Source: Umezawaea tangerina (lineage in GTDB: Bacteria > Actinomycetota > Actinomycetes > Mycobacteriales > Pseudonocardiaceae). From it: DNA of 32,000 nucleotides. The translations under genes and the position numbers were made by a program. The DNA is taken from NCBI RefSeq assembly GCF_003002815.1, contig NZ_PVTF01000021.1, positions 37,798-69,797 on the forward strand, written 5' to 3'. The stretch's first letter is position 1, and each line of letters starts with the position of its first letter. Shown piece by piece: positions 1,303 through 21,455 of this stretch. The notes below the pieces were generated by a model. It ran no database searches. It was not told the DNA's origin and saw only the letters and a program-made list of their open reading frames with translations.

Positions 1303-1944
1303 TCAGGCGGAGTTGCGGTGCTTTTGAGCGTCCAGGAGCGTCCGTGCGCAGACGGCCGCGAAGGTGTCGCGATCGGCCCATCTGGGCACGGTCCCGTAGT
1401 AGTGGACGTACAGTTCCGAGTCGGAAACGCAGAGGTGGGCATTGCGAGAGCATTCCCCGGCTGTGTCTACCGGCATTTCCAGGAGAGTGGCGGCACGACC
1501 AGCAAGTCGCAGGTCTCTGTTCACCTGTTCGACGTCCTTCGCAAGGTCGGCTCGCTGGGCCCACAGGATCCGTTTCCATTCCCTGTACTGGAGTCGCTGT
1601 GGCTTCCACCAAGCGTGATCGATCTTGCCCAACGGAGTCGCAATTGAGGCGACGGATGGTTCAAGGAGCGAGGCGGCGTGCAACTCGTTGTGCGGTCCGC
1701 GCATGAGTAGTGCTTGTCTACCCATCCCCGCCGCCAGGGCTCGTGTCACGAAATTGGTGACGAGATCAAGGTAGGGGCCGTTGTAAGGGGTCAGTGGCCA
1801 CCGCTCGATCGCGCTGTGGCGATGGACTGTGTACTTCGAGGTCCACGCTGTCCACGCTTGCAAGCGCTGTTGTTCTCGCTGGATCGAGTCGAAGTGCTGG
1901 TCGATCTCGTCGGGCATGGCGAACTTCTCCCAGTGGCGTGTCAT
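1303..1944 (-). CDS. Hypothetical protein in a lower-GC islet, with no family recognised. The start is uncertain: ATG 1944 (ATGA overlap with an upstream ORF), ATG 1917, or ATG 2025.
   Basis: Balanced amino-acid composition (W, Y, H, K, E, Q rich), unlike the Arg/Pro/Ala junk of wrong frames. GC3 is clearly lower than in the neighbours. GGGAG motifs lie upstream of both the 1944 and 1917 ATGs. Confidence 0.5.
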   Translation of the reverse strand: MTRHWEKFAMPDEIDQHFDSIQREQQRLQAWTAWTSKYTVHRHSAIERWPLTPYNGPYLDLVTNFVTRALAAGMGRQALLMRGPHNELHAASLLEPSVASIATPLGKIDHAWWKPQRLQYREWKRILWAQRADLAKDVEQVNRDLRLAGRAATLLEMPVDTAGECSRNAHLCVSDSELYVHYYGTVPRWADRDTFAAVCARTLLDAQKHRNSA

Positions 1945-2505
1945 CGCAGTCGGCAACTCCCACTGTGGGTCGCCGCGTGACGGAAGATCGTTAGCAGCTC
2001 GGCGGAGCAGGAAGGAACTGAACACGGCTCAGGTACGAGCGGGTTGCTTGATCGAGGAAGTCTCCGAAGGGGCTGGTGGTCGGCATCCGCTCGGGTAAGA
2101 CCGGTGGACAAACCGTGGCCGTGCTCGACGCATGAGCGAAGTGACCTGTCCGCATCCGGCATCACCAGTGGGGTGGACGCATCTGTCTCCCAGCCGATCC
2201 GTGCAGCCAGTCGGTCCCTGGGAGAGGGCCGTCTGTAATCGTGGCTCATCTGACGGAGATCGGCTCGCGCCGCGCGGTGGAACCCGACCGGTTCACGTGC
2301 TCGGCCAGCTCGTCGGGGAGACGACCCTAGTGGGGCTGCTCGGCGGCTTGATGGGCGTGTGGTGGCCACTGTGGAGGTTGCGCTGGGCGACGGTTGGCTG
2401 CCGGACGTGAACCCGCGGGTGGCACTTCTCGAGTCCGGCGGTGGTGCCGTGGCGGGTCTCCTGCCCGCCCTGCACGGCGCGACCAGCCGCGCTCCAGCGG
2501 TCACC

Positions 2506-4521
2506 TCACGCCTCCGGTGACGACCCCGTCTGGCGCAGGAGCTGGTCGACGAGGCGTTCCTTGGCGAGGGCGAGGTGGCGGCGGTAGGTGCCGTAGGGCA
2601 GGCCCAGGCGTCGGGCGGTGGCCTTGTGGGTGCGGGAGGTCGTGAAGTAGGTGGCGGTGAGCGCCTCGTGCGCCTTCACGCCCGCGGGGTCGACCTGGAG
2701 GGCGTCGAGGGCGGTCGTGACGGCGTCGCGCAGGTCCGCGACGGGGTCGGTCGAACCGGGTGGGACGAGGCGGGAGCGGAGCAGGACGCTGGTGGCGAAC
2801 TGGCGGGGGTTGCGCCAGGTGCGCAGCGCCTCGAGCACGCCCTCCTCGAAGGCGGCGCGCGGCAGGTCGTCGGTCGGGGCCGGGACCGTGCCCGGCCAGC
2901 CCGCGACGGGTTCGGCCAGGGCTCGGGCGCGGTGTTCGACCCACTGCTCGACCGGTTGCCGCCGCCAGTCGCGGCCGAAGACGTGCTGGCGGCGGCCGCC
3001 GACGTCGACCGCCACGACCTCCAGCATCCCGGCGTCGGCGAGGTAGCGCCGCCACAGGTCGGCGTCCTCGAAGACGGTGAAGGTCACCGCGCGGCCGCGG
3101 GTCCGCATCTCGGCGGCGATGGTGCGCCTGCTGATGAGGTCCATGAGGGGCGAGGGTCGTTGGTGGGCGCCGGGTTGCACGGCGAAGCGGCGGATGCCCA
3201 GGTGCTCGCCGGGGGCCAGGGGAGCGACGGCCTCGACGAAGCCCCAGACCTGGTCGACCACCGGGTCCGCGGCCCGGTCTTCGGGCAGCGCCGCCTCCAG
3301 CCGCAGGACGGCCATGAACCCGATCGGTGTGGCCGAGCCGGCGTAGCGGTAGACGCGGAAGCCCTGTGGCTGGCGGCGCGCCCAGTGCGCGACCGCGGTC
3401 GCCGAGGCGGCGTTCTCCGCCTCGGTCATCAGGCGCAGGACGTCCGGCACGTCTTCGGGCCGCAGGGCGGTGTCCTCGACATGGGGGTGCACGTGCCAGT
3501 CGTACAGGTCGCCGTGGTCGCGGAAGAGGAACATCCACTCGGCCACGCGCAGCAGGGCGTCGTGCTCGGAGGCGGCGCGCACGGCGTGCAGGCAGGCGAC
3601 CGAGACGCGGACGCGCACGTCCTCGTAGCGTTCCGGGTCGCGCCACCGCAGGTCGGCCTCCAGCGTGGCGCGCACCGCGTCGTGGGGGTGCAGCCCCTCG
3701 GGGGTGGCCTCGACGTAGGGCAGCTGGCGCAGCCAGGGGAACACCGTCGCGGTGTCCTCGTCGCCCAGCACCGCCCGCAGCAGCGACTCGCGCGTGACGT
3801 AGGCCCGTGCGACGACCTCCAGCGCACGCCGGTGCGCCGCGCTCGGCAGCTCGCCGACCAGCCGTTCGACCAACGTGGTCAGCACGTCGCCGGTGGGCCG
3901 CCACAGCGCGTTGGGCGCCTCGACGGGCACGGAGGCGGCGAGCGAGAGCGCGAGCGGGCTGCCCCCGGCGAAGGCGACGATGGCGTCGCGGCGCTCCGCG
4001 GCGACACCGCGGGACGCCAGCAGGGCGTCGGACTGGGCGGCGTCGAGCGGTCGCACGGCCAGCTCGGCGAACAGCGGCGCCCAGCCGGGGTCCAGCGTCC
4101 AGTCGGTGTCGGGGGCGACGCGGCTGGCGAGGACCACGAGCGCGCCCTCCGCGAGCCGGAGCAGGAAGGTGTCGCGCAGCCACGGTTCGAGCTGCTGGCA
4201 GTGCTCGAAGGAGTCGATGAGCAGGACCGCGCCGGGCTCGACGCACACCAGGGCGGCGGCCTCCTCGATGCGCCGCGGGTCCGCGTCCAGGAACCGCGCG
4301 TCGACGTGCACCACACGGCGGCCCGCGACCTCCGCCTGCCGCGCGGCGTGGCGCAGCAGCGAGGACTTGCCGATGCCACCCGGTCCGTGCAGGTAGGCCA
4401 CGAGCGGGGCGTCCGCCGCCCCGGCCAGCATCCGGTCGAGCACGTCCCGCTCGGGCTCGCGGCCCACCAGTGCTCCGGCGCGCGCCGCGGCCAGCCTGCC
4501 CGCCAGTCCCGTCGCACCCAC
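2506..4521 (-). CDS. STAND/AAA+ P-loop ATPase transcriptional regulator with a C-terminal helix-turn-helix (LuxR/sigma-70 region 4 like). A central region may be GNAT-like.
   Basis: Walker A 'GPGGIGKSSLL' and Walker B-like 'AVLLIDSFEH'. The C-terminal 'THKATARRLGLPYGTYRRHLALAKERLVDQL' looks like an HTH. GTG start at 4521. The two other >670-aa ORFs over this span are compositionally junk. Confidence 0.8.
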   Translation of the reverse strand: MGATGLAGRLAAARAGALVGREPERDVLDRMLAGAADAPLVAYLHGPGGIGKSSLLRHAARQAEVAGRRVVHVDARFLDADPRRIEEAAALVCVEPGAVLLIDSFEHCQQLEPWLRDTFLLRLAEGALVVLASRVAPDTDWTLDPGWAPLFAELAVRPLDAAQSDALLASRGVAAERRDAIVAFAGGSPLALSLAASVPVEAPNALWRPTGDVLTTLVERLVGELPSAAHRRALEVVARAYVTRESLLRAVLGDEDTATVFPWLRQLPYVEATPEGLHPHDAVRATLEADLRWRDPERYEDVRVRVSVACLHAVRAASEHDALLRVAEWMFLFRDHGDLYDWHVHPHVEDTALRPEDVPDVLRLMTEAENAASATAVAHWARRQPQGFRVYRYAGSATPIGFMAVLRLEAALPEDRAADPVVDQVWGFVEAVAPLAPGEHLGIRRFAVQPGAHQRPSPLMDLISRRTIAAEMRTRGRAVTFTVFEDADLWRRYLADAGMLEVVAVDVGGRRQHVFGRDWRRQPVEQWVEHRARALAEPVAGWPGTVPAPTDDLPRAAFEEGVLEALRTWRNPRQFATSVLLRSRLVPPGSTDPVADLRDAVTTALDALQVDPAGVKAHEALTATYFTTSRTHKATARRLGLPYGTYRRHLALAKERLVDQLLRQTGSSPEA

Positions 4522-4622
4522 TCCGCACCCCTCTCGTCGGGACCGTGTTCCCTTGTGGAGGAACGAACGTTAGGCCATGCAGGTGCCCTCGCGCCGGTAG
4601 GGCCGGAGCACTTCACGGCCTT

Positions 4623-4644
4623 GGACCGGACACCTGTCCGGTCC
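4623..4644. promoter_or_regulatory. 22-bp perfect palindrome GGACCGGACA-CC-TGTCCGGTCC in the divergent intergenic region. Candidate operator or hairpin.
   Basis: Read directly: 4623-4632 is the exact reverse complement of 4635-4644. It lies about 100 bp upstream of the 4521 start. Confidence 0.3.
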
Positions 4645-4754
4645 ACCGCCTCCGACGGTCGTGGTGGCGGGCTTGGTCCTGCTGGTTGACGGAGGGCTTC
4701 GGGGGCGCGTTGTGCCTCCCTTCCCAGCCACATGTCTGCGAAGGGGCTTTCGCC

Positions 4755-4835
4755 ATGCGCGTGAACAAGGTCGTCGTCATCGGTGCCGGGATCGGTGGGC
4801 TGTGGCTCATGGGGCGGGACCCGCTGCCGTCGTAG
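4755..4835 (+). pseudogene. Relic of the N-terminus of an FAD/NAD(P)-binding oxidoreductase (26 codons, then a stop).
   Basis: ATG 4755 gives 'MRVNKVVVIGAGIGGLWLMGRDPLPS*'. This is a canonical Rossmann GxGxxG dinucleotide-binding start that terminates after 26 aa. Confidence 0.35.
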
Positions 4836-4911
4836 CGTCGATACCGGTGGGGTATCGCTGTCCGACCCGGACGGTGTTGGTGTCCCGCCGGTGCGCGGAC
4901 AAGATCGAGTC

Positions 4912-5634
4912 ATGAGTGAGCGGACGATCGCGTTGGTCACCGGCGCGAACAAGGGGATCGGGTACGAGATCGCGGCGGGGCTCGGCGCGCTGGGCTGGAG
5001 CGTCGGGGTCGGCGACCGGGACGAGCGGCTGCCCGAGACGGTGGAGAAGCTGCGGGCGGAGGGGGTGGACGCGTTCGCCGTGCCCGTGGACGTGACCGAC
5101 GACGCGAGTGTGGCCGCTGCCGCGGCGTTGGTGGAGGAGCGTGCCGGGCGGTTGGACGTGCTGGTGAACAACGCGGGTGTCGCGGGGCCGTGGCCCGCGC
5201 GGCCGTCGACCATGTCGGTCGACGCCGTGCGGGAGGTGGTGGAGACGAACGTGCTGGGTCTGATCCGGGTGACCAACGCGATGCTGCCGCTGCTGCGCCG
5301 GTCCGAGCATCCGCGGATCGTCAACCAGTCCAGCCACGTCGGGTCGATGACCTTGCAGACCACGCCCGGTGTCGAGCTCGGCGACGTGGACGGGGCCTAC
5401 GCGCCGACGAAGACGTTCCTCAACGCCGTGACCGTCCAGTACGTGAAGGAGCTGGCGGGTACGGCGGTGAAGGTCAATTGTGCCTGTCCCGGTTTCGTGG
5501 CGACCGACATGACCCGTCACCAGGGCGACCGCACACCCGCGGAGGGCGCCAGGATCGCGATCCGGCTGGCCACCCTGCCCGACGACGGCCCGACCGGCGG
5601 GCTGTTCGACGACGACGGCGCGGTGGCGTGGTGA
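4912..5634 (+). CDS. Short-chain dehydrogenase/reductase (classical SDR).
   Basis: 'IALVTGANKGIGYEIA' (TGxxxGxG), 'NNAG', and Y-x3-K in 'GAYAPTKTF'. ATG at 4912. The stop TGA at 5632-5634 overlaps the next start. Confidence 0.9.
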   Translation: MSERTIALVTGANKGIGYEIAAGLGALGWSVGVGDRDERLPETVEKLRAEGVDAFAVPVDVTDDASVAAAAALVEERAGRLDVLVNNAGVAGPWPARPSTMSVDAVREVVETNVLGLIRVTNAMLPLLRRSEHPRIVNQSSHVGSMTLQTTPGVELGDVDGAYAPTKTFLNAVTVQYVKELAGTAVKVNCACPGFVATDMTRHQGDRTPAEGARIAIRLATLPDDGPTGGLFDDDGAVAW

Positions 5635-6863
5635 CGCGCCCGCGTGCGGAGCGGACCGCCATCACCGGTGCCCGGATCTTCGACGGCGAGAAGGTGCTGG
5701 GCGCCACCACCGTGCTCGTCGACCGCGGCAAGATCGTCCGCGTCGGCGGCGAGGTGCCCGACGGGGTCGAGGTGGTCGACGGCACCGGGGCGACCCTGCT
5801 GCCCGGCCTGATCGACGCGCACGTCCACACCGGCCCGGACTCGCTCGCGCTCGCCCTGCGGTTCGGGGTGACCACCGAGCTGGAGATGCAGGGCACCAGC
5901 ACCCGCGGCAGGCGGGCCGCCATCAGCGCGGACGACACGATGGCGGACGTGCGCTCCGCCGGCCTCGGCCTCACCCCGCCCGGCGGCCACCCCAGCGAGC
6001 TCTTCCCGCCCGGCTTCGTGCCGATCGGCGCCGAGTCGGCCGACGGCACGGCCCCGTTCACCCCCGACGCCACGAGCCCGGAAGGCGCCGCGGCGTCCAT
6101 TCCGCGACTGCTCGCGGACGGTGCGGACTACATCAAGTTCATGGTCGACGACGGCAGCGTCGAAGGCCACCCCGGCCTGCCGATGATCGACCCGGCCACG
6201 TTGGACGCCGGTGTGGCCGAGGCCAAGAGGTACGGCGTGCTCACCATCGCCCACGCGTTGACGATCGACGCCACCCGGATGGCGTTGGAGGCCGGTGTCG
6301 ACGGTCTGGCGCACGTGTTCGTGGAGCCGCACGACGACGAGATCATCGCCCTGATCGAGGACGCCGACGTGTTCGTCGTCCCGTGCACCGTCCTCAACGC
6401 CTCGCTCATGGGCATCACCGGCACCGAGCTCGCCGACGACCCGCGTGTCTCCTCGCGCCTGGACGAGGCCTGGGACACCGCCCTGCGCTCCAGTTTCGAC
6501 CGGTACCCGCAGGGCGACATCGACGACGTCCTGACCACCGTCAAGGTGCTGAGCGACGCCGGGGTCGACCTACTGGTCGGCACCGACTCCGCCGTCCCCG
6601 TCCCGTTCCTCGGCGGCCTCGCCCACGGCGCCAGCGTCCACCACGAACTCCAGTACCTCGTCCGCGCGGGCCTCACCCCGACCCAGGCACTACGCGCCGC
6701 CACCTCCACCACCGCCCGCCGCTTCCGCCTGACCGACCGCGGCCGCATCGCCGAAGGCCTCCGCGCCGACCTCCTCCTCGTCGACGGCGACCCCACCACC
6801 ACGATCTCCAACACCCTCAACACCCGCGCCGTCTGGCGCCGCGGCGCCCGGCTTGTTCTTTGA
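5631..6863 (+). CDS. Amidohydrolase-family metallohydrolase.
   Basis: 'LLPGLIDAHVHT' metal-binding HxH motif. The N-terminal 'ITGARIFDGEKVL...VDRGKIVRVG' is typical of the family. The GTG start overlaps the SDR stop (GTGA). The upstream part of the 557-aa ORF is out-of-context junk. Confidence 0.9.
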   Translation: MTRPRAERTAITGARIFDGEKVLGATTVLVDRGKIVRVGGEVPDGVEVVDGTGATLLPGLIDAHVHTGPDSLALALRFGVTTELEMQGTSTRGRRAAISADDTMADVRSAGLGLTPPGGHPSELFPPGFVPIGAESADGTAPFTPDATSPEGAAASIPRLLADGADYIKFMVDDGSVEGHPGLPMIDPATLDAGVAEAKRYGVLTIAHALTIDATRMALEAGVDGLAHVFVEPHDDEIIALIEDADVFVVPCTVLNASLMGITGTELADDPRVSSRLDEAWDTALRSSFDRYPQGDIDDVLTTVKVLSDAGVDLLVGTDSAVPVPFLGGLAHGASVHHELQYLVRAGLTPTQALRAATSTTARRFRLTDRGRIAEGLRADLLLVDGDPTTTISNTLNTRAVWRRGARLVL

Positions 6864-6989
6864 GCCCTCGCAGTACGGCGCTACAGCGCGCTGATGTCGT
6901 GCGCCGCTCGACAGGTCGACCGCAATAGTGCGTGACCGGAAGCCGACAAGTCGGCTATGCGTCGGCGTCGGGGGTGAGGGGGACGCGCC

Positions 6990-7262: not shown

Positions 7263-7342
7263 AGCCGAGGGTCTACCAAGGTGGATGAGGATCGTCTCGG
7301 CCGCGCTGGTGCTCGACTGGCTGGTATGGCGGTGGTCTCCGG

Positions 7343-8374
7343 TCAGCGGCGTGGGTGGGCGAGTCCGTGGTCGATGAGGCTTTGCGCGGTGTCGTGCAGG
7401 GTTTCGTCGGTGGGGCGGGTGGTCCAGCCGAGGTCGTCGGCGGCCTTCTGGCTGGACAGCTTCTCGGGGTGGCCGACGAAGGCGAGTGCGAGGCGCAGGG
7501 TGGGGTCGAAGCGGGCGGCGAGCCACATCGCCCAGTAGGGGAGGCGGCGGGTGGGTACGCGCAGGCCCTTGGTGGCCAGGGTGCGGGCCATGTCGAGCAT
7601 CCAGACGTCCGGCCCAGCGCAGATGTAGCGGTTGCCCGCGGCTTTCGGGCTCTCCACGGCCAGGCGGTGGGCCAGGGCGATGTCGCGGACGTCGACGATG
7701 CTCCAGCTGATGTGCGGGACCGCGGGCATGGAGCGGTCGAGCAGCCGTTGCACGGTCTCGTTGGACGTGGCCACCTCGGGGCGTTGCAGGGGGCCGACGA
7801 CGAGGCCGGGGTTGATGGCGACCAGTTCCAGGTGGCGCTGCTCGGGCAACTCGTCGACGAACTTCCAGGCTGCCCGTTCGGCGAGGGTCTTGCTCTTCTC
7901 GTACGGGGTGCAGTTCGCGATGTCGGACCAGTCGTCCTCGGTGTGGCGGCCTGCCACGGGGTCGGGGCGGCCGCCCGCGATGGCGGAGGACGAGGAGGTC
8001 AGGACGACCCGGCGGACGGTGCTGCTCGCGGCGGCGGCGCGCAGCACGCGCAGGGTGCCCTCGACGGCGGGGCGGATGACGTCGTCCTCGTCACGGGGGA
8101 CCGCGGGCGGGTTCGGCGAGGCCACGTGCAGCACGGAGGTGCAGCCCTCGACGGCCTCGGCCCAGCCCTCGTCGGAGTCCAACCGGGCGGCGACGAGCTC
8201 CAGTCGACCCCCGAACTCGGCGGCCAGTGCGGTGAGGTGGGCGACCTTCTCGGTCCTCGTGACGTCGCGGACGGTGCCGCGGACGGCGTAGCCGTGCCGG
8301 AGCAGTTCCTCGACGCAGTAGCCGGCGATGAAGCCGGACGCGCCGGTGACCAGGACGGTGTCGGGCTGGCTCAT
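7343..8374 (-). CDS. NAD(P)-dependent epimerase/dehydratase-family reductase (extended SDR, dihydroflavonol/aldehyde-reductase like).
   Basis: 'VLVTGASGFIAGYCVEELL' Rossmann motif and 'YEKSK' (YxxxK). GGGAGA SD site upstream of ATG 8374. Confidence 0.9.
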   Translation of the reverse strand: MSQPDTVLVTGASGFIAGYCVEELLRHGYAVRGTVRDVTRTEKVAHLTALAAEFGGRLELVAARLDSDEGWAEAVEGCTSVLHVASPNPPAVPRDEDDVIRPAVEGTLRVLRAAAASSTVRRVVLTSSSSAIAGGRPDPVAGRHTEDDWSDIANCTPYEKSKTLAERAAWKFVDELPEQRHLELVAINPGLVVGPLQRPEVATSNETVQRLLDRSMPAVPHISWSIVDVRDIALAHRLAVESPKAAGNRYICAGPDVWMLDMARTLATKGLRVPTRRLPYWAMWLAARFDPTLRLALAFVGHPEKLSSQKAADDLGWTTRPTDETLHDTAQSLIDHGLAHPRR

Positions 8375-9927: not shown

Positions 9928-10437
9928 TCACCAGCCCTCGACGAGCCCCCACCAGAGCGAGTCCTCGCCGACGGTGGGGTCCTTCTCCCGCACGAGCTCG
10001 AAGAACCGGTCCAGCCGGTCGTAGGTCTCGTCGTCGAACGGGGCGGCGCGCAGCGCGGTGTTCACGCCGTACCAGCGCCACGCCGTCTCCACGAGCAGGG
10101 CGCCCGAGCCGTTGACCCAGTACCGGGGCACGGTCGCGGTCTCCAGCGTGGAGAACCCCTCGACCGTGCCCGTGTCGGCGGCGGTGACGAGGTCGGCGTG
10201 CGAGAGCGTGCCGAGCCGGTAGTAGACGCGGTCCTCGTCCTCGATGACCGCGTCGAACGACGGCCGGAGCTCCGACGGGGCGATGACCGGGAGGCCCCAC
10301 CTCCGGTACGCCCGCAGGTCGGCGTCCGGGAGCCGCCACGACGTCACCGACGCCGGTGGCATGGTCTGCACCGACGGCACGACCAGGTCGTCCAGCGGCG
10401 CGGAGAGCGAGTGCTCGTAGAGCTCCAGTGGTTCCAC
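9928..10437 (-). CDS. Putative cognate immunity protein (SUKH superfamily, SUKH-4-like), 169 aa.
   Basis: It starts (GTG 10437, or ATG 10362) 12 nt after the toxin stop on the same strand. It is acidic and Trp-rich. Segments 'WRLPDADLRAYRRWGLP', 'YYRLG' and 'YWVNGSGALLVETAWRW' resemble SUKH-4 immunity proteins. The rest of the 537-aa ORF is antisense junk over the toxin gene. Confidence 0.7.
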   Translation of the reverse strand: MEPLELYEHSLSAPLDDLVVPSVQTMPPASVTSWRLPDADLRAYRRWGLPVIAPSELRPSFDAVIEDEDRVYYRLGTLSHADLVTAADTGTVEGFSTLETATVPRYWVNGSGALLVETAWRWYGVNTALRAAPFDDETYDRLDRFFELVREKDPTVGEDSLWWGLVEGW

Positions 10438-10448
10438 GGCGTCGGATC

Positions 10449-13400
10449 CTACGGGTGCCCCTGGGTCATCCACCTGTTGATCGCCGACCAGTTCTCCCTC
10501 CGGGTGCCGTCGAGGCTCCAGGTGATGGCGGCGTTCTTGTACTGGCCGACGACGCCCGCGCAGTCGTGGTTGGGCATCGAGCACGGCACGCGCTCGGAGT
10601 AGATCCGGGTGACCTGCTCGGGCTTGATGCCGCGGGCCTGCAGCTCGGCCTGCATGATCTGCTCGGAGTGCAGACCACCGGGGTCGTTGGCCTGGACCAG
10701 GTACTGCTTGCCGGTCGGTGTCTCGTACTCGTACACCGCGACGTTCTGGTGCGAGCCGACGCCCTCGTTCAGCCGGTGCTCGTAGGCCATCTTGCTGAGG
10801 TCGGTCTCGCCGAGGCGCACCGGTCCCTGCCTGCCGCACACCGCGAGCCCGTAGGGGTCGACGAACCGCAGCGGGTTGCCCGCGTAGGCGTAGTGGTTGG
10901 GCGACGGTGCCAGCCCCAGCGGGTCCGGGCCGGTGTAGCGGCCCGTCCACGGGTCGTAGTACCGGAAGACGTTGTAGTGCAGGCCGGTCTCGGTGTCGTG
11001 GTACTGGCCGGGGAAGCGCAGCGGGCAGTCCGTGGTGGACCGCGAGCCCAGCAGCGCGCCCCACGCCGAGAACGAGGCCTGCCAGGTGGTCCGGCCGTCG
11101 GCGCCGACCAGCGCGGTGGGCCTGCCGACGTGGTCGGTGACGACGGCGTGGAAGCCGGTGCCGTCGAGCTGGGCGAGCGGGGTGGACGTGCCCGCCTCGT
11201 GCACCCACGTCGTGACCCCGACGCCGGTGGCGTGCTGCTCGGCCAGGTCGAAGCCGTCCCAGGCGAAGTCGACGCGCAGCTGCCCGGAGGTCTTGGCGCA
11301 GCGGCGGCCGAGCGCGTCGTAGAGGTACCGCCAGGTACGACCGTCCGGTGTGGACACCTCGACGAGCTGGTCGTAGGCGTTCCACGAGTAGCGCCAGAGC
11401 AGGACCTGGCCGGAGAGCGTGTGCCTGCGGACCTCGCTCACCCGGCCCTGGCCGTCGTAAGCGCAGGTCGTGCGGCCCGCGGCCCGCAGCAGGCCGCGGT
11501 CGAACTCGCGCTGCCCCTCGGCGTCGCCGCCGGGCAGCCACGCGGCGGCGGTGATGTTGCCCGCCAGGTCGTAGTCGTAGCGCTCGGTGTTGTCCGGCGA
11601 GTGGACCGCGGCGACGCGGCCCATGACGTCCAGGTCGACGCGGGTCGGGCCGTCGCCGACCAGGTAGCCGTCGGGCCGCCAGCGCAGCTGCCTGCGCTGT
11701 CCCGCGAACTCCTGCGCCGCGAGCCTGCCGACGGCGTCCCAGGTCTGGGCCAGGACCAGGTGGGCGTCGAGGTTGTGCGCCACGGTGCGCCCGAGGCGGT
11801 CGCGGTCGAACGTCAGCGCGTGCCCACCCGCCCGCACCGAGGCCAGGCCGCCCGCCGGGTCGTAGCCGTAGTCCACGGCCGCGCCCGACGGCGTCACCCG
11901 GCGCACCCGCCTGCCCGCGGCGTCGTAGCTGTTGACCAGCACCCGGCCGTTGAACGCCTCGGTCAGCACCCGGCCGACCGGGTCGCGGGTCAGGGTGATC
12001 TCACCCGCCTCGTTGACCGCGCGGACCACCTGGCCCTGCGAGTCGTACTCGTAGGTGGTCTCGCCGCCGTCGTCGGCGACCTGCCGCACGCGCCTGCCCG
12101 CGGCGTCGTAGGCGAAGGTGACCGTCTGGCCCGCGCCGTTGGTGCTGGACACGACCCGACCGGCCGCGTCGTGGGCGTAGGTGACGACACGACCGTGGAA
12201 GTCCTGCTCCCGCACCAGGTTCCCGGCCGGGTCGTAGGTGTAGGTCCACGTCCGGCCCTGCGCGTTCGTGACGGCGGTGACGCGCTGCTCGGTGTCGTAG
12301 GCGAACGCCGTCCGCGCGCCGTCGGCGGTGACCCGCGCGGCGGGCAGGTCGAAGTCGCCGATCTCGAACGTCGTGCGCCTGCCGCCCGCGTCGACGTGCT
12401 CGACGAGGTTGCCCTCGCCGTCGTGGCGCCAGGTCTCCCGGCCGCCGTCGGGCCCGAGCCGCCACGCGGGCTGGCCGTCGACGGTCCAGCCGTAGCGGGT
12501 GGTGCCCTCGAGCGGGTCGACGACGGCGACCAGCCGTCCGAAGACGTCGCGCTCGTAGCGGTGCCGGTTGCCGCGCGGGTCGACCATGGTGATCGGCAGG
12601 CCCGCGGCGTTGCAGGTGATGACGCTGGTGGCGCCGGTCGCGTCCGTCCGGCTCGCGAGGTGCCCGTACGCGTCGTAGGTCGTGCGGGTCGTCCCGCCCG
12701 GACCGGTCTCCGCGAGGAGGTTGCCGCGGGCGTCGTAGGTGTACTCCGTGGTCGCGACCCCGTCGGAGACCGAAGTGGACAGTCCGAACCTGTTGTACGC
12801 CAGGCTCCTGGTCGACCCAGTGGGCTCGACGATCTCGACGACGTGCCCGGCCTCGTCGTACCGGTAGCGCGTCGTGTTGCCGACCGCGTCCGTGCGGGCG
12901 AGCAGGCGGTCGTAGCGGTCCCACTCGCTGGTCACGCTGTGCCCCAGCGGATCCACGACCCGCACGATCTGCCGCAGCGCGTTAAGGTGGTAGACCGACT
13001 CGTTGCCGAGCGAGTCCTGCACGGTCGTCGCCGAGTCGTCGTAGCGGAACCGGGCGTTGAGGATGCCGCCGGTGCCCTCGGCCCACGCCACCCGGCCGCG
13101 CGCGTCGAAGTGGTAGCGGTAGCGGGTTCCCCTGCGGTCGGTCCAGCCGACGATCCGCCCGTCGCCGTCGTAGTCGAAGACGTGCGGCAGACCGGAGGCG
13201 TTGGTCACGCGGGTGAGGTCGCCGGAGTCGTCGTAGCCGAACGACATCAGCGGGATGTCGCCGAGCCGGTAGCCGGTGACGCGGCCGCGTGCGGTCTCGA
13301 CGGTGACGCGGTAGCCGCCGGAATGCCTGATCTCCGTGGGCATCCCGTCCGCGTCGGTGACGAAGTCGATGCGGTCGCCGTTGCGGTCGGTGATCGCCCG

Positions 13401-14840
13401 CAGCGGCGCCAGTCCGGCCACGCCGGACGGCGCGAAGTGCAGGACGTGCCCGTTCGGCCGGGTGATCCGGTAGGTGCCGTCGGCGTCCAGCGCCAACGGC
13501 CAGCGCGGCCCCTCCACCGGCAGGACGGACTCGCCGCGCGCCGGCGCGGGGTAGACGAGCATGATCGCGTCCGCGCCCGCGAAGCACACGCCCTGCTCGT
13601 CCACCTCCAGCCGCTGGTCCACGGTGGACGCCCAGGACCGGCCGAAGAGCCTGCCGACCCGGTAGGAGGAGATGTGCGTCCGTTGCAGGACGAGGCCGAG
13701 GTCGGCGGGCAGCGTGACGTCGGTCTGGGTGAGGAACATGTCGCCGGTGACGACGTCGACCGGGTCGCCGCAGCCCGTGCGGTTCTCCGCCTCCTGCACG
13801 GTCGACCGCGGGTCCTCGGTCTGGCTCCGCACGGACGAGTCCTCGGCGGGCGGCTTCCCGTTGCCCGACGGCTCGCCGGGAGTGCCCTCGGCCGTGGAGG
13901 TGTGCGTCTCGCCGCCGGGCGGGGCGTGCTCGCCGCCCGCCGGGTGCGGTTCCGCGCTGGCGACGTGGGTTTCCCCGCCCGCGCTGGACACGTGCGTCTC
14001 ACCGCCACCGCCGCCCGTGTGCGGTTCGGCCGACGACACGTGCGTGCCGCCGCCCTCGCTGGCGTGCAGGCGCGGCTCCTCGACGTGCCCGTGCAGCGCG
14101 GCCATCACCTTCTGCACGCCCTGCCAGATCTCCTCGAGCTTGCTCATGATCGGCCGCAGCTTCTCGACCGAGTTGATCAGCTTCTTGATCGTGGCGCCGA
14201 TCTTCTCGGTCCACGCCGCGACCTGCTCGACGACCTGGGCCACGACGAACGGCGTGCCGAGGCCGAGGGTGAACACCTCCTCCAGCGCGTCCTGGATGAA
14301 GTCGCCGACGGCCTGCGTGACCATGTCCCGCACCAGGGCGCGCACGACACCGGTGATGACGCCGACCACCTTCACGACCGTGCTGATCGCGCTCGCGCAG
14401 GTGGCGATGGTGGAGAGCCCGTCGACCCTGTCCCCGACGTGCTTGCGGTAGGCGTCGGCGGCAGGCCCCGACCAGGTCGCCGTGTCCTTGGTGGCTGCGT
14501 CGGTGAGGCTCTTCCCGGCGTCCTGCACGGCTTTCGCGACGTTGGCCCACGTCTGCGAGTACGCGGCGATCTGGTCGCCGTCGCCCGCGAGCTGGTTGAG
14601 CGCGTCCTGGAGCGGCTTGACGTGCTCGATGAGCCAGTTCAGGCCGTAGGAGATGAGCGTGCCGACCGGGTTCATCGCCATGGTCAGCAGGTCCATGCCC
14701 GCGCCGAGCGCGGAGATGCCGCCCTCGATCCAGCTCCCCGACTCGACCGCGTCGTAGACGCCCGCGGCGTCGTCCACCAGGTTGATCCCGGTGTGCCAGG
14801 TCGTGGAGTCCTGCTTCTGGGCCAGGAGCGGGTTGGTCAC
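10449..14840 (-). CDS. Rhs/YD-repeat polymorphic toxin of 1463 aa. It has a WXG-containing T7SS-type N-terminal domain, a repeat linker, an Rhs shell, an Rhs core and a C-terminal deaminase-like toxin tip.
   Basis: - N-terminal 'GLNWLIEHVKPLQDALNQLAGDGDQIAAYSQTW...ATWSGPAADAYR' contains a WxG motif.
- 'GDPVDVVTGDMFLTQTDVTLP' is an Rhs N-terminal plug-type motif.
- There are dozens of YD repeats (for example 'YDAAGR', 'YTYDARGNL').
- The core reads 'PLRFPGQYHDTETGLHYNVFRYYDPWTGRYTGPDPLGL...NPLRFVDPYGL'.
- The GTG start overlaps the upstream stop (GTGA). Confidence 0.95.
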   Translation of the reverse strand: MTNPLLAQKQDSTTWHTGINLVDDAAGVYDAVESGSWIEGGISALGAGMDLLTMAMNPVGTLISYGLNWLIEHVKPLQDALNQLAGDGDQIAAYSQTWANVAKAVQDAGKSLTDAATKDTATWSGPAADAYRKHVGDRVDGLSTIATCASAISTVVKVVGVITGVVRALVRDMVTQAVGDFIQDALEEVFTLGLGTPFVVAQVVEQVAAWTEKIGATIKKLINSVEKLRPIMSKLEEIWQGVQKVMAALHGHVEEPRLHASEGGGTHVSSAEPHTGGGGGETHVSSAGGETHVASAEPHPAGGEHAPPGGETHTSTAEGTPGEPSGNGKPPAEDSSVRSQTEDPRSTVQEAENRTGCGDPVDVVTGDMFLTQTDVTLPADLGLVLQRTHISSYRVGRLFGRSWASTVDQRLEVDEQGVCFAGADAIMLVYPAPARGESVLPVEGPRWPLALDADGTYRITRPNGHVLHFAPSGVAGLAPLRAITDRNGDRIDFVTDADGMPTEIRHSGGYRVTVETARGRVTGYRLGDIPLMSFGYDDSGDLTRVTNASGLPHVFDYDGDGRIVGWTDRRGTRYRYHFDARGRVAWAEGTGGILNARFRYDDSATTVQDSLGNESVYHLNALRQIVRVVDPLGHSVTSEWDRYDRLLARTDAVGNTTRYRYDEAGHVVEIVEPTGSTRSLAYNRFGLSTSVSDGVATTEYTYDARGNLLAETGPGGTTRTTYDAYGHLASRTDATGATSVITCNAAGLPITMVDPRGNRHRYERDVFGRLVAVVDPLEGTTRYGWTVDGQPAWRLGPDGGRETWRHDGEGNLVEHVDAGGRRTTFEIGDFDLPAARVTADGARTAFAYDTEQRVTAVTNAQGRTWTYTYDPAGNLVREQDFHGRVVTYAHDAAGRVVSSTNGAGQTVTFAYDAAGRRVRQVADDGGETTYEYDSQGQVVRAVNEAGEITLTRDPVGRVLTEAFNGRVLVNSYDAAGRRVRRVTPSGAAVDYGYDPAGGLASVRAGGHALTFDRDRLGRTVAHNLDAHLVLAQTWDAVGRLAAQEFAGQRRQLRWRPDGYLVGDGPTRVDLDVMGRVAAVHSPDNTERYDYDLAGNITAAAWLPGGDAEGQREFDRGLLRAAGRTTCAYDGQGRVSEVRRHTLSGQVLLWRYSWNAYDQLVEVSTPDGRTWRYLYDALGRRCAKTSGQLRVDFAWDGFDLAEQHATGVGVTTWVHEAGTSTPLAQLDGTGFHAVVTDHVGRPTALVGADGRTTWQASFSAWGALLGSRSTTDCPLRFPGQYHDTETGLHYNVFRYYDPWTGRYTGPDPLGLAPSPNHYAYAGNPLRFVDPYGLAVCGRQGPVRLGETDLSKMAYEHRLNEGVGSHQNVAVYEYETPTGKQYLVQANDPGGLHSEQIMQAELQARGIKPEQVTRIYSERVPCSMPNHDCAGVVGQYKNAAITWSLDGTRRENWSAINRWMTQGHP
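10452..10844 (-). other. C-terminal toxin domain (131 aa after DPYGL), predicted to be a nucleic-acid deaminase fold (DddA/SCP1.201-like).
   Basis: 'GGLHSEQIMQAELQARGI' gives H-x-E (His codon 10668-10670, Glu codon 10662-10664). 'IYSERVPCSMPNHDCAGVV' gives P-C-x6-C (Cys codons 10581-10583 and 10560-10562). The implied order is strand, HxE helix, strand, PC..C helix, strand, as expected for a deaminase fold. Confidence 0.6.
13881..14066 (-). repeat. Degenerate in-frame tandem repeats encoding a His/Gly/Ser/Thr/Glu-rich linker (GGTHVSSAEPH / GETHVSSA / GETHVASAEPH / GEHAPP / GETHTSTA).
   Basis: Toxin residues about 259-320. At DNA level, ACGTGCGTCTC(A/G)CCGCC-like units recur at irregular spacing. 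Confidence 0.8.
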
Positions 14841-15154
14841 GACAGCTCCTTCCCGATGGCGGAGAAGCTGTCCGCCAGGGTGCGGTCCACGGTGTCGTAG
14901 TGCTCGGCGGTCGCCTCGACCTCGTTCGCGGTGTCGGTGATCGCCTGCCGCGCGGCCCGCAGCGCGAGCACACCGGGGGCGCTGACCGCCATGACGATGG
15001 GCACGAACAGCGGGCCGCAGATCATCCCGTAGGCCTGCACTCCCACGGTGACCTGCTGGGCGGCCTCCACGGCCTGGCCCAGCGCGTCGGCGACCTGCCG
15101 CACGGACCCGGCGTGGGTGTGCAGCTCGCCCGGCGTGACCTGGTAGCCGCTCAT
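14837..15154 (-). CDS. EspC/WXG100-like small helical T7SS-associated protein (105 aa).
   Basis: 'MSGYQVTPGELHTHAGSVRQVADAL...AYGMICGPLF' resembles the EspC-type 'type VII secretion target' family. C-terminal 'HYDTVD' is a YxxxD motif (14885-14899). ATGA overlap with the upstream gene and GTGA overlap with the toxin. Confidence 0.8.
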   Translation of the reverse strand: MSGYQVTPGELHTHAGSVRQVADALGQAVEAAQQVTVGVQAYGMICGPLFVPIVMAVSAPGVLALRAARQAITDTANEVEATAEHYDTVDRTLADSFSAIGKELS

Positions 15155-15573
15155 CGGTCCATCACCGACCCGAAGTCCTCGTCGTCGTCGGGTTTCGGCG
15201 GTGGCGACGGCCTGTCCCCCGGATCGGGCTCGGGGAACCTCGCGCGGTAGGTCCCGACGATGGTGTCGACGGTCTGCTTGTCGTCGCCGATCGTCTCGGC
15301 CATCACACCCGCGAGCGCCTCCGGCAGCCTGGCCTGCGCCCGGCGCATGGTGAGCAGGACGGCCTTCGCCAGCTCGTCGTGCTCCTTGATCCGGAGGTCC
15401 GTGACGTTGCCGCCGGAGTCGATCGTGACGGTCACCGGGCCTTCGGTCTCGGTGACGGAGACGGCCTGCGCCAGCACGCGCATCTCCTGGTAGCGCTCGG
15501 CTTTCGCCTTGGCCTGCGCGACCCACGCGTCGATCCCCGCGCTCGCGCTTCCGCCAGGTATCGGACCAGTCAT
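15151..15573 (-). CDS. YbaB/EbfC-like small protein (140 aa) with an acidic Pro-rich tail.
   Basis: 'AERYQEMRVLAQAVSVTETEGPVTVTIDSGGNVTDLRIKE...LAKAVLLTMRRAQARL' matches the YbaB/EbfC pattern. ATG 15573 has a strong SD site (GGAGGGG) 7 nt upstream. In-frame upstream ATGs at 15663 and 15681 lack SD sites. Confidence 0.8.
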   Translation of the reverse strand: MTGPIPGGSASAGIDAWVAQAKAKAERYQEMRVLAQAVSVTETEGPVTVTIDSGGNVTDLRIKEHDELAKAVLLTMRRAQARLPEALAGVMAETIGDDKQTVDTIVGTYRARFPEPDPGDRPSPPPKPDDDEDFGSVMDR

Positions 15574-15810: not shown

Positions 15811-17013
15811 TCACGGTGCCGCCAGCGCCTCCGTCGGGGAGAGGCGGGCAGCGCGGACGGCCGGGTACAGGCCCGCGACGGCGCCGACGAGCAGGGTGGC
15901 GGCGAGACCCCCGGCGCTCGACCAGACCGGGACGACGGGCGGCCAGGACCTCATGCCCGCGTAGACGGTCGTGACCGCGCTGCCGAGCACGACACCGCCC
16001 AGGCCGCCCAGTGCCGAGAGCAGCAGGGACTCCGCCAGGAACTGCAGGCGGACCTGGCCGCGGGTCGCGCCGAGGGAGCGGCGCAGGCCGATCTCGGCGC
16101 GGCGCTCCAGGACGGAGATGACCATGGTGTTGGCCACGCCGACCCCGCCGACCAGCAGGGCCACCGCGCCGAGACCGAGGAGCAGTCCGGTGAACGCGCG
16201 GTCGGTCGCCTGCCTGGCCGCGAGCGCGTCCGACGGCCTGGACACGTCGACCTCGTTGGGCGCCAAGGGGTTCGCGGTCGCGGCGAGCACACCCCGCACG
16301 GCCTCCACGGCGGCGTCGGCGGACCGGGTGTACACGGTCGTCGGGTGCCCGTCGAAGTCCAGGTAGGACTCGGCGGCGGCCCACCCCACGAGGGCCGCCG
16401 TGTCGAGCGAGGGCACCAGGGTGACCGGTTCCAGGACGCCGATGACGGTGAACGGCCTGCCGCCCAGCTGGACCTGGACGCCCTGCCCGACCGCGCCGAC
16501 GCCGAGCGACCGGGCGGCCGTCGACCCGAGCACCGCGGTCGGGTACCCGGCGGTCGCGGCGTTGAGCCACGTCCCGCTCGTCAGCGAGGCGCCGACCGTG
16601 CCGGGCAGGTCCAGGTGGGCCGCCTGCACCGACAGACCCCCGCTCTGCACCTCGGGGATCCGGTCGTTGCGGTACACCTTCGCGCCGGTGACCTTGCCGG
16701 TGGCCGCCACCCGCTCGACCGGACCGATCCGCGAGATCATGGCGACCGACTCGACGGGCAGCACGGCGCTCCCGCCGGACAGCCGGTCGCCGGGCGCGAC
16801 GGTGAGCAGGTTCGTGCCGAGCGCGGCCAGCTGCTCGTCGAGGCGCGCCCGGCCGGACGCCGAGATGCCCACCACCGCGACCATGGCCGCGATGCCGATG
16901 GCGATCCCCAACGCGGACAGGAAGGCCCGCAACGGCCTGGTGCGCAGCCCCGCGCCCCCGGTGCGGAGCACGTCGCGCGGTCGCAGCCGGGACGGGGTCA
17001 GGTCGAGCACCAC
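15811..17013 (-). CDS. ABC transporter permease, MacB/FtsX type (about 400 aa).
   Basis: N-terminal 'LRTRPLRAFLSALGIAIGIAAMV', a large extracytoplasmic loop, and a C-terminal FtsX motif 'ERRAEIGLRRSLGATRGQV'. The GTG start lies 1 nt after the ATPase stop. Confidence 0.9.
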   Translation of the reverse strand: MVLDLTPSRLRPRDVLRTGGAGLRTRPLRAFLSALGIAIGIAAMVAVVGISASGRARLDEQLAALGTNLLTVAPGDRLSGGSAVLPVESVAMISRIGPVERVAATGKVTGAKVYRNDRIPEVQSGGLSVQAAHLDLPGTVGASLTSGTWLNAATAGYPTAVLGSTAARSLGVGAVGQGVQVQLGGRPFTVIGVLEPVTLVPSLDTAALVGWAAAESYLDFDGHPTTVYTRSADAAVEAVRGVLAATANPLAPNEVDVSRPSDALAARQATDRAFTGLLLGLGAVALLVGGVGVANTMVISVLERRAEIGLRRSLGATRGQVRLQFLAESLLLSALGGLGGVVLGSAVTTVYAGMRSWPPVVPVWSSAGGLAATLLVGAVAGLYPAVRAARLSPTEALAAP

Positions 17014-17014
17014 C

Positions 17015-17673
17015 TCAGACCACCTTCCCGTCGCGCATGGACACCCGGCGGGGCAGCCCGGCGGCGATCTCCCGGTCGTGCGTGACGACCACGACGGTCG
17101 TGCCCGCCGAGTGCAGCTCGCGCAGCAGCGCGAGCACGCCCGCCCCGGACGCGGTGTCCAGGTTCCCGGTCGGCTCGTCGGCCAGCAGCAGCGCGGGTTC
17201 CCCCGCCACCGCCCGCGCGATGGCCACCCGCTGCCGCTCACCGCCGGACAGCTCGTGCGGCGCGTGGTGCAGCCGGTCGCGCAGCCCCACCCGCACCAGC
17301 GCGGCCTCCGCTCGCCGCCTGCGCTCCCGCGCCGCACACCGGCGTAGAGCAGCCCGTCCGCCACGTCGTCCAGCGCCGCCTGCCCCCGCGCCAGGTGGAA
17401 CTGCTGGAACACGAACCCGACCCGCCGCGCCCGCAACGCCGACAGCTGCCCGTCCGACAGCGCGGCGACGTCGTACCCCTCCACCCGCACCGTCCCCTCC
17501 GACGGCCGGTCCAGCGTGCCGATCAGCTGCAGCATCGTGGACTTGCCCGACCCGGACGGGCCGACGACGGCGACCATCTCCCCGTGGTCGATGGACAGCG
17601 TGACGCCGTCCAGCGCCCTGACCCCGCCCTCGTACACCTTGCCGACGCCTGCCAGCTCCACCACCGGGCTCAC
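17015..17673 (-). pseudogene. ABC transporter ATP-binding protein (MacB-type) interrupted by an apparent 1-nt deletion near 17329-17338.
   Basis: The N-terminal half (Walker A 'GPSGSGKST', '...FVFQQFHL...DGLLYAGV') is in one frame. The C-terminal half ('[40 protein letters not shown]', '[12 protein letters not shown]', 'VVVTHD') is in another. The span is 659 nt, one short of a multiple of 3. Confidence 0.8.
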
Positions 17674-21085: not shown

Positions 21086-21203
21086 CCGGGCCCGAAGCCC
21101 ACGGCACTACGGCTTTGCGGTCCGCTGGGCCCGAACAGCCGTATCCGCGGCTCCGCACCCGCCCTAACGTCGGATGGACGTCCACGACGACCAAGGGAGT
21201 CCC

Positions 21204-21455
21204 ATGACCCGCCGCTTAGCGACCGCCCTGTCCCTCGTCCTCGCGACCGCGGTCGTCCCGCTCGTGTCGGCCGGTACCGCGCAGGCCCTCCCGGCCTGCA
21301 AGTCGGGCTACCAGTGCACCACCACCTTCTACTCCTCCGCCGACCGCGAGCTGCCGGTCGGCGGTACGACCAGGTTCTGCGACGGCACCGTCGACACGTG
21401 GGGCTCGTTCACCCGCTACGCCACCGTCACCCAGGCGAAGTGCGAGGCCGCCTGA
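21204..21455 (+). CDS. Small secreted protein with four cysteines (83-aa precursor).
   Basis: AAGGGAG SD site before ATG 21204. Signal peptide 'MTRRLATALSLVLATAVVPLVSAGTAQA'. The mature part is about 55 aa and contains 4 Cys. Confidence 0.6.
   Translation: MTRRLATALSLVLATAVVPLVSAGTAQALPACKSGYQCTTTFYSSADRELPVGGTTRFCDGTVDTWGSFTRYATVTQAKCEAA

Follow-up and report, generated by a model that had tools for sequence, protein, structure and literature searches.

An APOBEC-like deaminase domain of the XOO_2897 family at the tip of an Rhs toxin from Umezawaea tangerina

A 1463-aa Rhs protein of Umezawaea tangerina ends in what is almost certainly a deaminase toxin of the XOO_2897 clade, encoded beside its cognate SUKH-4 immunity protein. 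Among deaminase folds this C-terminal tip falls in the helix-4, AID/APOBEC-like division; it is not of the DddA family, where an initial annotation had placed it. We set out below the gene and its neighbours, the family assignment, the predicted fold and the readings that compete with ours.

The toxin gene and its neighbours

We analysed a stretch of 32,000 nucleotides, here called the window. The initial annotation had described, without naming the strand, a toxin tip of 131 residues behind a DPYGL motif. Minus-strand translation of 10452-10844 indeed gives 131 residues, and the string quoted at the time ('...NVAVYEYETPTGKQYLVQANDPGGLHSEQIMQAELQARGIKPEQVTRIYSERVPCSMPNHDCAGVVGQYKNAAITWS...') is found there exactly; the plus strand over the same interval yields no meaningful product. 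The tip is the C-terminus of an uninterrupted 1463-aa ORF at 10449-14840 on the minus strand. We rejected a plus-strand ORF at 10356-14900 as an antisense artefact of high G+C: the minus-strand frame has a GC3 of 0.97. The features of the locus are as follows.

9928..10437, minus strand: immunity gene, SUKH-4, 169 aa, pI 4.3 (PF14435, 32.2 bits, cut-off 25.5)
10449..14840, minus strand: complete toxin gene for 1463 aa, with its stop codon (WP_106196350.1, Umezawaea tangerina)
10452..10844, minus strand: toxin tip, XOO_2897-family deaminase domain, 131 aa after DPYGL (translation, Pfam, AF2, Foldseek)
10512..10748, minus strand: core aligned by Pfam XOO_2897-deam, residues 33-111 of the tip against positions 3-82 of the 101 in the model
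10560..10586, minus strand: P87-C88-x6-C95, cysteines predicted to bind zinc, in the loop that follows strand 3 and where helix 3 begins (conservation, AF2)
10662..10670, minus strand: H59-S60-E61, with the His predicted to bind zinc and the Glu to be catalytic, at the N-terminal end of helix 2 (conservation, AF2)
10845..11069, minus strand: Rhs-associated core, carrying the autoproteolysis motif DPLGL-x17-DPYGL that is predicted to release the tip (TIGR03696, 84.9 bits)
14837..15154, minus strand: EspC/WXG100-like partner gene, 105 aa (PF10824, 41.1 bits, cut-off 23.5)
15151..15573, minus strand: YbaB/EbfC-like gene, 140 aa (PF02575, 21.3 bits, under the 25.5 cut-off)

The toxin runs from a WXG100-like head through a repeat linker, DUF6531, an RHS/YD-repeat shell and the Rhs core to the deaminase tip. 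RHS_repeat scores 252 bits over 19 stretches of the protein, and both TIGR01643 and TIGR03696 match as well. The TIGR03696 match (residues 1258-1332) contains DPLGL at residue 1306 and ends with DPYGL (residues 1328-1332), directly after which the tip starts. Hence the protein has all the marks of an Rhs polymorphic toxin, namely YD repeats, a core with a DPxGL pair, a variable tip and a downstream immunity gene, and on this point the initial annotation was right. The Rhs/YD-repeat toxins with SUKH immunity described by Zhang et al. (2012, PMC3482391) share this architecture: a YD-repeat shell, a DPxGL-x17-DPxGL core, a variable toxin, an immunity gene downstream and a WXG-type T7SS head.

The gene noted earlier at 9928-10437 is real and lies on the minus strand. 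Its GTG start follows the toxin stop by 11 nt, with AGGA 9 nt upstream; GC3 in its frame is near 1.0, and NCBI names the product 'SUKH-4 family immunity protein'. Upstream, the EspC-like gene shares 4 nt at its stop with the toxin start; it is itself preceded by the YbaB/EbfC-like gene, and these two genes also overlap by 4 nt. Some of the evidence for T7SS export lies below threshold: the toxin head reaches 22 bits against WXG100_2 (cut-off 27) and 15.7 against T7SS_signal, and the YbaB match too falls below its cut-off. ESX apparatus genes were not found within the 32-kb window. We know of no experimental demonstration that an actinobacterial T7SS exports a full Rhs shell.

A single-protein scan found three orthologous loci, and the operon is kept in Umezawaea sp. 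and in two genomes of Lentzea, with tips that are 96, 89 and 84 % identical to ours. This identity points to purifying selection acting on the toxin; no other part of the operon is as well conserved across genera as the tip, and the immunity gene has been kept intact. Elsewhere, the same tip family stands behind RHS, PT-HINT, ALF-repeat and eCIS modules. It therefore behaves as a swappable toxin cassette.

Family assignment and the zinc site

PF14440 (XOO_2897-like deaminase) matches the tip with 60.5 bits (cut-off 27; E = 1.8e-16), and the same label was already precomputed for the identical protein on public contigs. All 57 aligned family sequences match PF14440; among them are weaker secondary Pfam matches to dCMP_cyt_deam_1 (17), NAD1 (6), APOBEC_N (5) and SNAD4 (3). 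A word-indexed homologue search with the 131-aa tip returned zero matches, and an exhaustive phmmer search was needed; among 1.84 billion, it found 331 representatives at E<=1e-3, 99 of them at E<=1e-10. With the PF14440 E-value, these 331 representatives mean that the motif pattern is not due to chance. NCBIfam has no model for the tip. PF14428 (SCP1.201) did not match the tip or its 56 relatives at E<=1, and the Pfam APOBEC models did not match the tip itself. Thus the profile search that had been proposed for this domain did find a deaminase family, but that family is PF14440.

Sequence searches of the PDB found no solved structure for the XOO_2897 family. With the tip as phmmer query there were zero matches to PDB sequences at E<=10, and the DddA chains were matched neither by the tip nor by the family profile at that threshold. 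The profile gave only sub-threshold matches to APOBEC3H and APOBEC3F; APOBEC3H aligned with HAE and PC..C in register. A separate profile match to a Q-beta A1 capsid fusion (E = 0.003) was discarded as spurious, a 34-residue Cys-rich stretch being responsible.

The HxE and PCxnC zinc site proposed earlier is borne out by conservation. Over 146 family domains, H59 is kept in 144, E61 in 145, C88 in all 146 and C95 in 143, with P87 present in 135. The codons lie at 10668-10670 (H59), 10665-10667 (S60), 10662-10664 (E61), 10581-10586 (P87-C88) and 10560-10562 (C95). Judged from these conserved positions and from where they fall in the predicted secondary structure, H59, C88 and C95 would cluster around the zinc. 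The initial annotation had regarded the Ser of the triad and the six-residue Cys spacing as non-canonical. Position 60, however, is Ala in 80 domains and Ser in 65; the triad reads HAE in 79 and HSE in 64, and Cys-x6-Cys spacing occurs in 105 of the 146. Both features are therefore the norm in this family. A further acidic residue, E84 of 'YSERVPC', lies between strand 3 and helix 3 and is kept in 135 of 146 domains; a conserved Glu at this place is listed for XOO_2897 in Table 1 of Iyer et al. (2011, PMC3239186).

The tip does fall in a minority sub-clade, in that its R/L/G signature is common to just 13 of the 146 representatives. This signature reads 'SERVPC ... SL[DS]G'; the sub-clade also has [QE]N[WFY], with an aromatic at 119. 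Tyr occupies residue 113 in 96 of 146 domains and is the usual aromatic after strand 4; the tip has Gly there, and W119, at the start of helix 4, is the sub-clade's aromatic in its place. Given this Gly, and given that Pfam coverage ends at model position 82, we conclude that the specificity loop is divergent in the sub-clade.

Predicted fold and known relatives

The AF2 model of the tip has a pLDDT of 95 and a pTM of 0.89. Its elements are H15-27, E35-42, E45-52, H60-70, E78-85, H95-100, E106-111 and H115-128, which gives the topology a1-b1-b2-a2-b3-a3-b4-a4. Strand b5 is absent and the chain ends at residue 131. The predicted domain is thus truncated after helix 4 and has no strand 5, as in the XOO_2897 clade of the helix-4 division. 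A deaminase toxin tip had been suggested and a structure prediction called for; the secondary-structure order in this model is that of a deaminase, in keeping with the PF14440 match.

Foldseek against the PDB ranked APOBEC3H first (E = 5.2e-4), followed by APOBEC3F, APOBEC3B and AID, with APOBEC1, APOBEC2 and blasticidin-S deaminase among the further matches. The matches are modest, with TM scores of 0.41-0.52 and a large global rmsd. The DddA entries 8e5e and 6u08 came at ranks 36 and 42 (E 0.14-0.2, 67 columns, TM 0.30), so the APOBEC structures outrank them with E-values more than a hundred times lower. A search of a viral fold library returned nothing meaningful (best E = 0.013, unnamed).

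These results agree with the classification of Iyer, Zhang, Rogozin and Aravind (2011, PMC3239186), in which XOO_2897 is a helix-4 clade grouped with AID/APOBEC and predicted to deaminate cytosine, while SCP1.201, DYW and Pput_2613 are placed in the C-terminal b-hairpin division. Their Table 1 gives for XOO_2897 an actinobacterial distribution, T2SS/T6SS/T7SS, RHS and PAAR, and SUKH4 as immunity (PMC3239186). The tip shares with the clade H[AS]E, PCx6C, the Glu of 'YSE.xPC' and the strand-5-less helix-4 topology, and its locus repeats the actinobacterial host, RHS, T7SS-type partners and SUKH-4 listed in 2011. It differs from most of the clade in its sub-clade, with Gly for Y113, an aromatic at 119 and a helix 4 that lies outside the Pfam model.

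AID and the APOBECs (3H, 3F, 3B, 3A) act on cytosines in polynucleotides. As the best PDB matches, they share with the tip the helix-4 division, an HxE that opens helix 2 and a PC..C that links strand 3 to helix 3. Identity, however, is only about 13-17 %, with TM 0.41-0.45 and no Pfam APOBEC match. The tip is also smaller, at about 125 aa against about 180-200 aa, carries four extra residues between its cysteines, and lacks strand 5 and the C-terminal helices. In the predicted model the resemblance is at the level of the fold only, the five-stranded sheet and helices 5 and 6 being absent.

DddA, the dsDNA deaminase toxin of Burkholderia cenocepacia (SCP1.201, BaDTF1), is likewise an interbacterial toxin carried C-terminally on a large delivery protein, with an adjacent immunity gene and the zinc site of the superfamily. 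It belongs, however, to another clade and to the C-terminal hairpin division; the T6SS delivers it and DddI is its immunity protein, whereas the tip is carried by a T7SS-type Rhs protein with SUKH-4. No sequence model joins the two, and the structural match is weak and partial. The other characterised toxin deaminases, SsdA (BaDTF2, DYW-like, ssDNA) and DddB (BaDTF3, Pput_2613-like, dsDNA) (PMC13346905), gave no sequence match either, and XOO_2897 stands outside all three BaDTF families.

Proposed mechanism and alternative readings

From the family membership, motifs, predicted fold and gene context we infer an activity, a substrate, an export route and an immunity partner for the tip. The tip, a predicted zinc-dependent deaminase of about 125 residues, would be the toxic cargo that this polymorphic Rhs toxin carries in Umezawaea tangerina (Pseudonocardiaceae). 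The 1463-aa protein would be made together with its EspC/WXG100-like partner, and its WXG100-like head would probably direct it into a type VII (ESX) system for export. By analogy with the family, the RHS/YD shell would enclose the tip and the Rhs aspartyl-protease motif DPLGL...DPYGL would free it. Inside a competitor cell, H59, C88 and C95 would hold zinc and E61 would act as proton shuttle, converting cytosine in a polynucleotide to uracil. The likeliest substrate would be ssDNA, and the outcome mutagenesis, uracil-excision damage and growth arrest. The producer would be protected by the SUKH-4 protein encoded just downstream. We hold this account as a whole, mechanism included, to be probable. 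DNA cytosine as the substrate, with ssDNA preferred, is a narrower claim that we favour slightly; the initial annotation held that the sequence does not reveal the substrate, and we agree.

Could the tip instead be of the DddA/SCP1.201 (BaDTF1) type, with the dsDNA deamination that this implies? The HxE ... PCxnC core is common to the superfamily and makes a by-eye alignment with DddA possible, DddA is present among the weak Foldseek matches, and many bacterial toxin deaminases act on dsDNA (PMC13346905). Against this stand the lack of PF14428 and PDB DddA matches reported above, a b4-a4 topology in place of the hairpin division to which SCP1.201 is assigned, and the lead of the APOBEC structures in Foldseek. 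In hhalign, the family profile reached 6 % probability against DddAtox and 20 % against APOBEC3A, with both motifs aligned in the latter, but the values are uninformative. We reject membership in the SCP1.201/DddA family and consider this reading very unlikely; the tip may nonetheless act on dsDNA as such. Nor do we favour the view that the tip has decayed or is non-catalytic, so that the cassette would be a remnant with no toxic activity. The locus is an isolated cassette and no secretion apparatus was found in the window, yet the catalytic residues are all intact, its ORF is uninterrupted with the high GC3 given above, the tip is the best-conserved part of the operon and the immunity gene persists intact. 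Such decay is extremely improbable.

Another reading keeps a deaminase toxin but gives it a substrate other than DNA, either RNA (cytosine or adenine in tRNA, rRNA or mRNA) or free nucleotides, so that it would poison translation or the nucleotide pool rather than mutate DNA. The deaminase fold also includes tRNA, RNA and nucleotide deaminases. The sequence leaves the substrate unreadable, 17 of 57 family sequences match PF00383 (cytidine/dCMP deaminase) weakly, and the sub-clade has an atypical loop behind strand 4. In the NEB screen several toxin deaminases showed RNA activity, and XOO_2897, which may or may not have been one of the 13 families screened, is not named among the five families with nearly all the DNA activity; the supplement text of two deaminase-screen preprints contains no XOO_2897 entries. 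We nevertheless think a non-DNA substrate unlikely. Huang et al. (2023) reported ssDNA cytidine deamination by PF14440 members fused to Cas9 nickase in a base-editor screen, and the family has already been mined for base editors (10.1101/2023.05.21.541555). The nearest solved folds are DNA/RNA-editing AID/APOBEC enzymes, and Iyer et al. (2011) place the clade with these and predict deamination of cytosine in nucleic acids. Our literature search found no detailed enzymology of the XOO_2897 family.

A variant of our reading concerns the 'SERVPC ... SL[DS]G ... [QE]N[WFY]' sub-clade. The region after strand 4 sets target choice in APOBECs. Perhaps the remodelled loop gives the sub-clade a substrate or sequence context unlike that of the XOO_2897 members already screened, for example dsDNA, RNA or an unusual flanking-base preference? 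If so, the tip could be a distinct compact base-editor scaffold and a first test case for a T7SS-borne Rhs shell. We regard this as unlikely.

We conclude that the tip had been misfiled: it is an APOBEC-like XOO_2897 toxin deaminase and not a relative of DddA, with motifs that are ordinary for its clade. Specialists will find no surprise in it, the family having been catalogued in 2011 and sampled in a base-editor screen in 2023. It is compact, its model is a confident one and its cognate immunity protein is clear, which makes it a reasonable candidate for structural and substrate studies. The T7SS-type Rhs architecture in Pseudonocardiaceae may be of mild wider interest.

Genomic setting of the tip

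We located the deaminase tip at the C-terminus of a toxin open reading frame (1463 aa, ~160 kDa) that carries Rhs encapsulation and cleavage motifs. The 131-residue string quoted in the initial annotation occurs exactly in the minus-strand translation of 10452-10844, with H59, S60, E61, P87, C88 and C95 where they had been placed; plus-strand translation of the interval gives nonsense. Third-position G+C in the toxin gene is 0.97, in a window averaging ~73% G+C, and we therefore take the minus-strand frame of 10449-14840 to be the real coding frame. The product is WP_106196350.1 of Umezawaea tangerina, named "RHS repeat-associated core domain-containing protein" by NCBI. Its Rhs-associated core match (TIGR03696, residues 1258-1332, 84.9 bits) ends at the last residue of DPYGL (residues 1328-1332), and the tip begins directly afterward. 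The gene belongs to the following minus-strand group, transcribed in the order YbaB-like, EspC-like, Rhs toxin, SUKH-4:

Genes of the toxin operon (9928-15573)
9928-10437, minus strand: SUKH-4 immunity gene, 169 aa, acidic (pI 4.3); PF14435, 32.2 bits (cut-off 25.5)
10449-14840, minus strand: Rhs toxin gene, tip at 10452-10844
14837-15154, minus strand: EspC/WXG100-like gene, 105 aa; PF10824, 41.1 bits (cut-off 23.5)
15151-15573, minus strand: YbaB-like gene, 140 aa; 21.3 bits, below cut-off

The YbaB-like, EspC-like and Rhs toxin genes overlap by 4 nt, and the immunity gene starts at a GTG 11 nt past the toxin TAG, preceded by AGGA. Its product is WP_106196349.1, an NCBI "SUKH-4 family immunity protein" of U. 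tangerina. The toxin head gives Pfam matches to WXG100_2, T7SS_signal and PPE, all sub-threshold, and is followed by DUF6531, 19 RHS-repeat stretches and the Rhs core. A degenerate tandem repeat (13904-14006, minus strand, residues ~279-312) lies between the WXG-like head and DUF6531 and encodes a Gly/His/Glu/Ser-rich linker of GGETHVSSAEPH-like units. In an older draft, GCA_000715895.1 (KL571958.1, 3416-7989), the same toxin gene is split into 947-aa and 123-aa gene calls, has an N-run at 7317-7496, and bears its PF14440 label on the 123-aa fragment.

The operon is an isolated unit in a housekeeping and regulatory neighborhood that encodes regulators, dehydrogenases, an amidohydrolase, a MacB-type ABC transporter, a thiolase and an RPE65-type oxygenase. 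No ESX/T7SS core or apparatus gene was found in the 32-kb window. The ATPase gene (~17015-17610, minus strand) upstream of the MacB-type permease (~15811-17010) occupies two reading frames that switch near 17325, with the Walker A half ("GPSGSGKST") in one and the signature and Walker B half in another. The sequence over the switch is identical in GCA_000715895.1; the gene is either a pseudogene or affected by a shared sequencing error. We saw no link to the toxin locus for a 671-aa STAND/AAA_16-type NTPase regulator (2506-4521, minus strand) or a small DUF6289 protein (21174-21455, plus strand).

Family and predicted fold

The tip had initially been read as a DddA/SCP1.201-type deaminase with a non-canonical zinc site. 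Its single Pfam match is PF14440, the Xanthomonas XOO_2897-like deaminase family (E = 1.8e-16, 60.5 bits, cut-off 27), a label already precomputed for the toxin product on public contigs; SCP1.201 (PF14428) was not matched, and no NCBIfam model matched the tip. A word-indexed homologue search returned no relatives, and an exhaustive phmmer search of 1.84 billion representatives returned 331 at E<=1e-3 (99 at E<=1e-10). In a 57-sequence alignment of the family, every sequence matched PF14440 and none SCP1.201. Weaker secondary matches were to dCMP_cyt_deam_1 (17 sequences), NAD1 (6), APOBEC_N (5) and SNAD4 (3), and to APOBEC2, APOBEC3, APOBEC4 and AID.

Was the zinc site unusual? We counted its residues in an alignment of 146 family domains. 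His is present in 144 and Glu in 145, with mostly Ala (80 domains) or Ser (65) between them (HAE 79, HSE 64); Pro87 is found in 135, Cys88 in 146 and Cys95 in 143, and exactly six residues separate the cysteines in 105. Hence, both HSE and Cys-x6-Cys are family consensus.

An AlphaFold2 model built with the 57-sequence alignment (mean pLDDT 95, pTM 0.89) places helices at 15-27, 60-70, 95-100 and 115-128 and strands at 35-42, 45-52, 78-85 and 106-111. This predicted a1-b1-b2-a2-b3-a3-b4-a4 order, lacking strand 5, supports the deaminase fold originally proposed. Helix 2 carries HSE at its N-terminus, Cys88 falls in the loop following strand 3, and helix 3 has Cys95 in its first turn; E84 is the Glu described for the clade by Iyer et al. 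(PMC3239186). Foldseek against the PDB ranked APOBEC3H first (E = 5.2e-4, probability 1.00, TM 0.41-0.45). Nearly all of the top 30 were APOBEC3F, APOBEC3B, AID, APOBEC1 and APOBEC2, then blasticidin-S deaminase (TM 0.51), and DddA appeared only at ranks 36 and 42 (E 0.14-0.2, 67 aligned columns). No PDB chain was detectable with the tip by sequence, and the family profile gave only sub-threshold APOBEC3H/3F alignments, with HAE and PC..C in register and four extra family residues as an insertion; sequence search thus finds no solved family member. Profile comparison with hand-typed DddA (6% probability) and APOBEC3A (20%) was uninformative. The analysis thus shows membership of PF14440, an intact, conserved zinc and catalytic motif, a predicted helix-4-type deaminase fold and an adjacent SUKH-4 gene. 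The initial reading holds in part: the protein is a deaminase toxin accompanied by an immunity gene, but the tip is one more member of the catalogued XOO_2897 family and not of the DddA type.

Conservation and relatives

Orthologous operons lie at ~1680-6930 of loci from Umezawaea sp. NPDC059074 and two Lentzea genomes, one a MAG.

Identity to the window (Umezawaea sp.; Lentzea MAG; other Lentzea)
Deaminase tip: 96%; 89%; 84%
Rhs core: 89%; 83%; 85%
Immunity protein: 82%; 73%; 75%
EspC-like protein: 75%; 71%; 67%

Polymorphic toxins often show a hypervariable tip. Here the pattern is reversed: in all three loci the tip is better conserved than the immunity protein and EspC-like partner. These identities indicate strong purifying selection on the tip and speak against a decayed domain. 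In other proteins, XOO_2897 tips are fused to RHS plus PT-HINT, PT-HINT alone, ALF repeats plus PT-HINT, or an eCIS core domain, fusions typical of a swappable polymorphic-toxin cassette. Individual carriers include an ALF-repeat/PT-HINT protein, an eCIS core protein and a 3210-aa RHS/Laminin_G/PT-HINT protein; we take the ALF-repeat/PT-HINT architecture to be umbrella-toxin-like (UmbC).

The tip's sub-clade has "SERVPC" and "SL[DS]G" versus the majority "SELxPC" and "SFEYG" in the 146-domain alignment. The tip has Gly in place of the family's Tyr113, with an aromatic at position 119 instead, and the PF14440 model ends before its helix 4. The corresponding loop of APOBECs bears on target choice; by analogy, the sub-clade might differ in target specificity.

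Possible substrate and proposed action

XOO_2897 falls outside the characterized bacterial deaminase toxin families BaDTF1 (DddA, SCP1.201), BaDTF2 (SsdA, DYW-like) and BaDTF3 (DddB, Pput_2613-like) (PMC13346905). Iyer et al. placed it with OTT_1508 and AID/APOBEC, a grouping with which our fold search agrees, and their Table 1 entry, "Actinobacteria ... T2SS, T6SS, T7SS; RHS, PAAR; SUKH4," makes the tip's architecture a textbook case for the clade (PMC3239186).

The sole experimental lead on substrate is the reported ssDNA cytidine deamination by PF14440 members fused to Cas9 nickase in rice protoplasts (10.1101/2023.05.21.541555). What may count against this lead is an NEB in vitro screen of 13 families, in which five families other than XOO_2897 accounted for almost all of the DNA activity (10.1101/2023.06.29.547047). 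We lean slightly toward DNA cytosine, with ssDNA preferred. RNA or free nucleotides as substrate seem unlikely to us, and DddA-like specificity for dsDNA we consider more improbable still.

In the mode of action that Rhs-toxin and clade knowledge suggest, the toxin would be exported together with its EspC-like partner via a T7SS. The tip would be set free by autoproteolysis after DPYGL and would carry out zinc-activated hydrolytic deamination of cytosine in target-cell nucleic acid, while neutralization by SUKH-4 would protect the producer.
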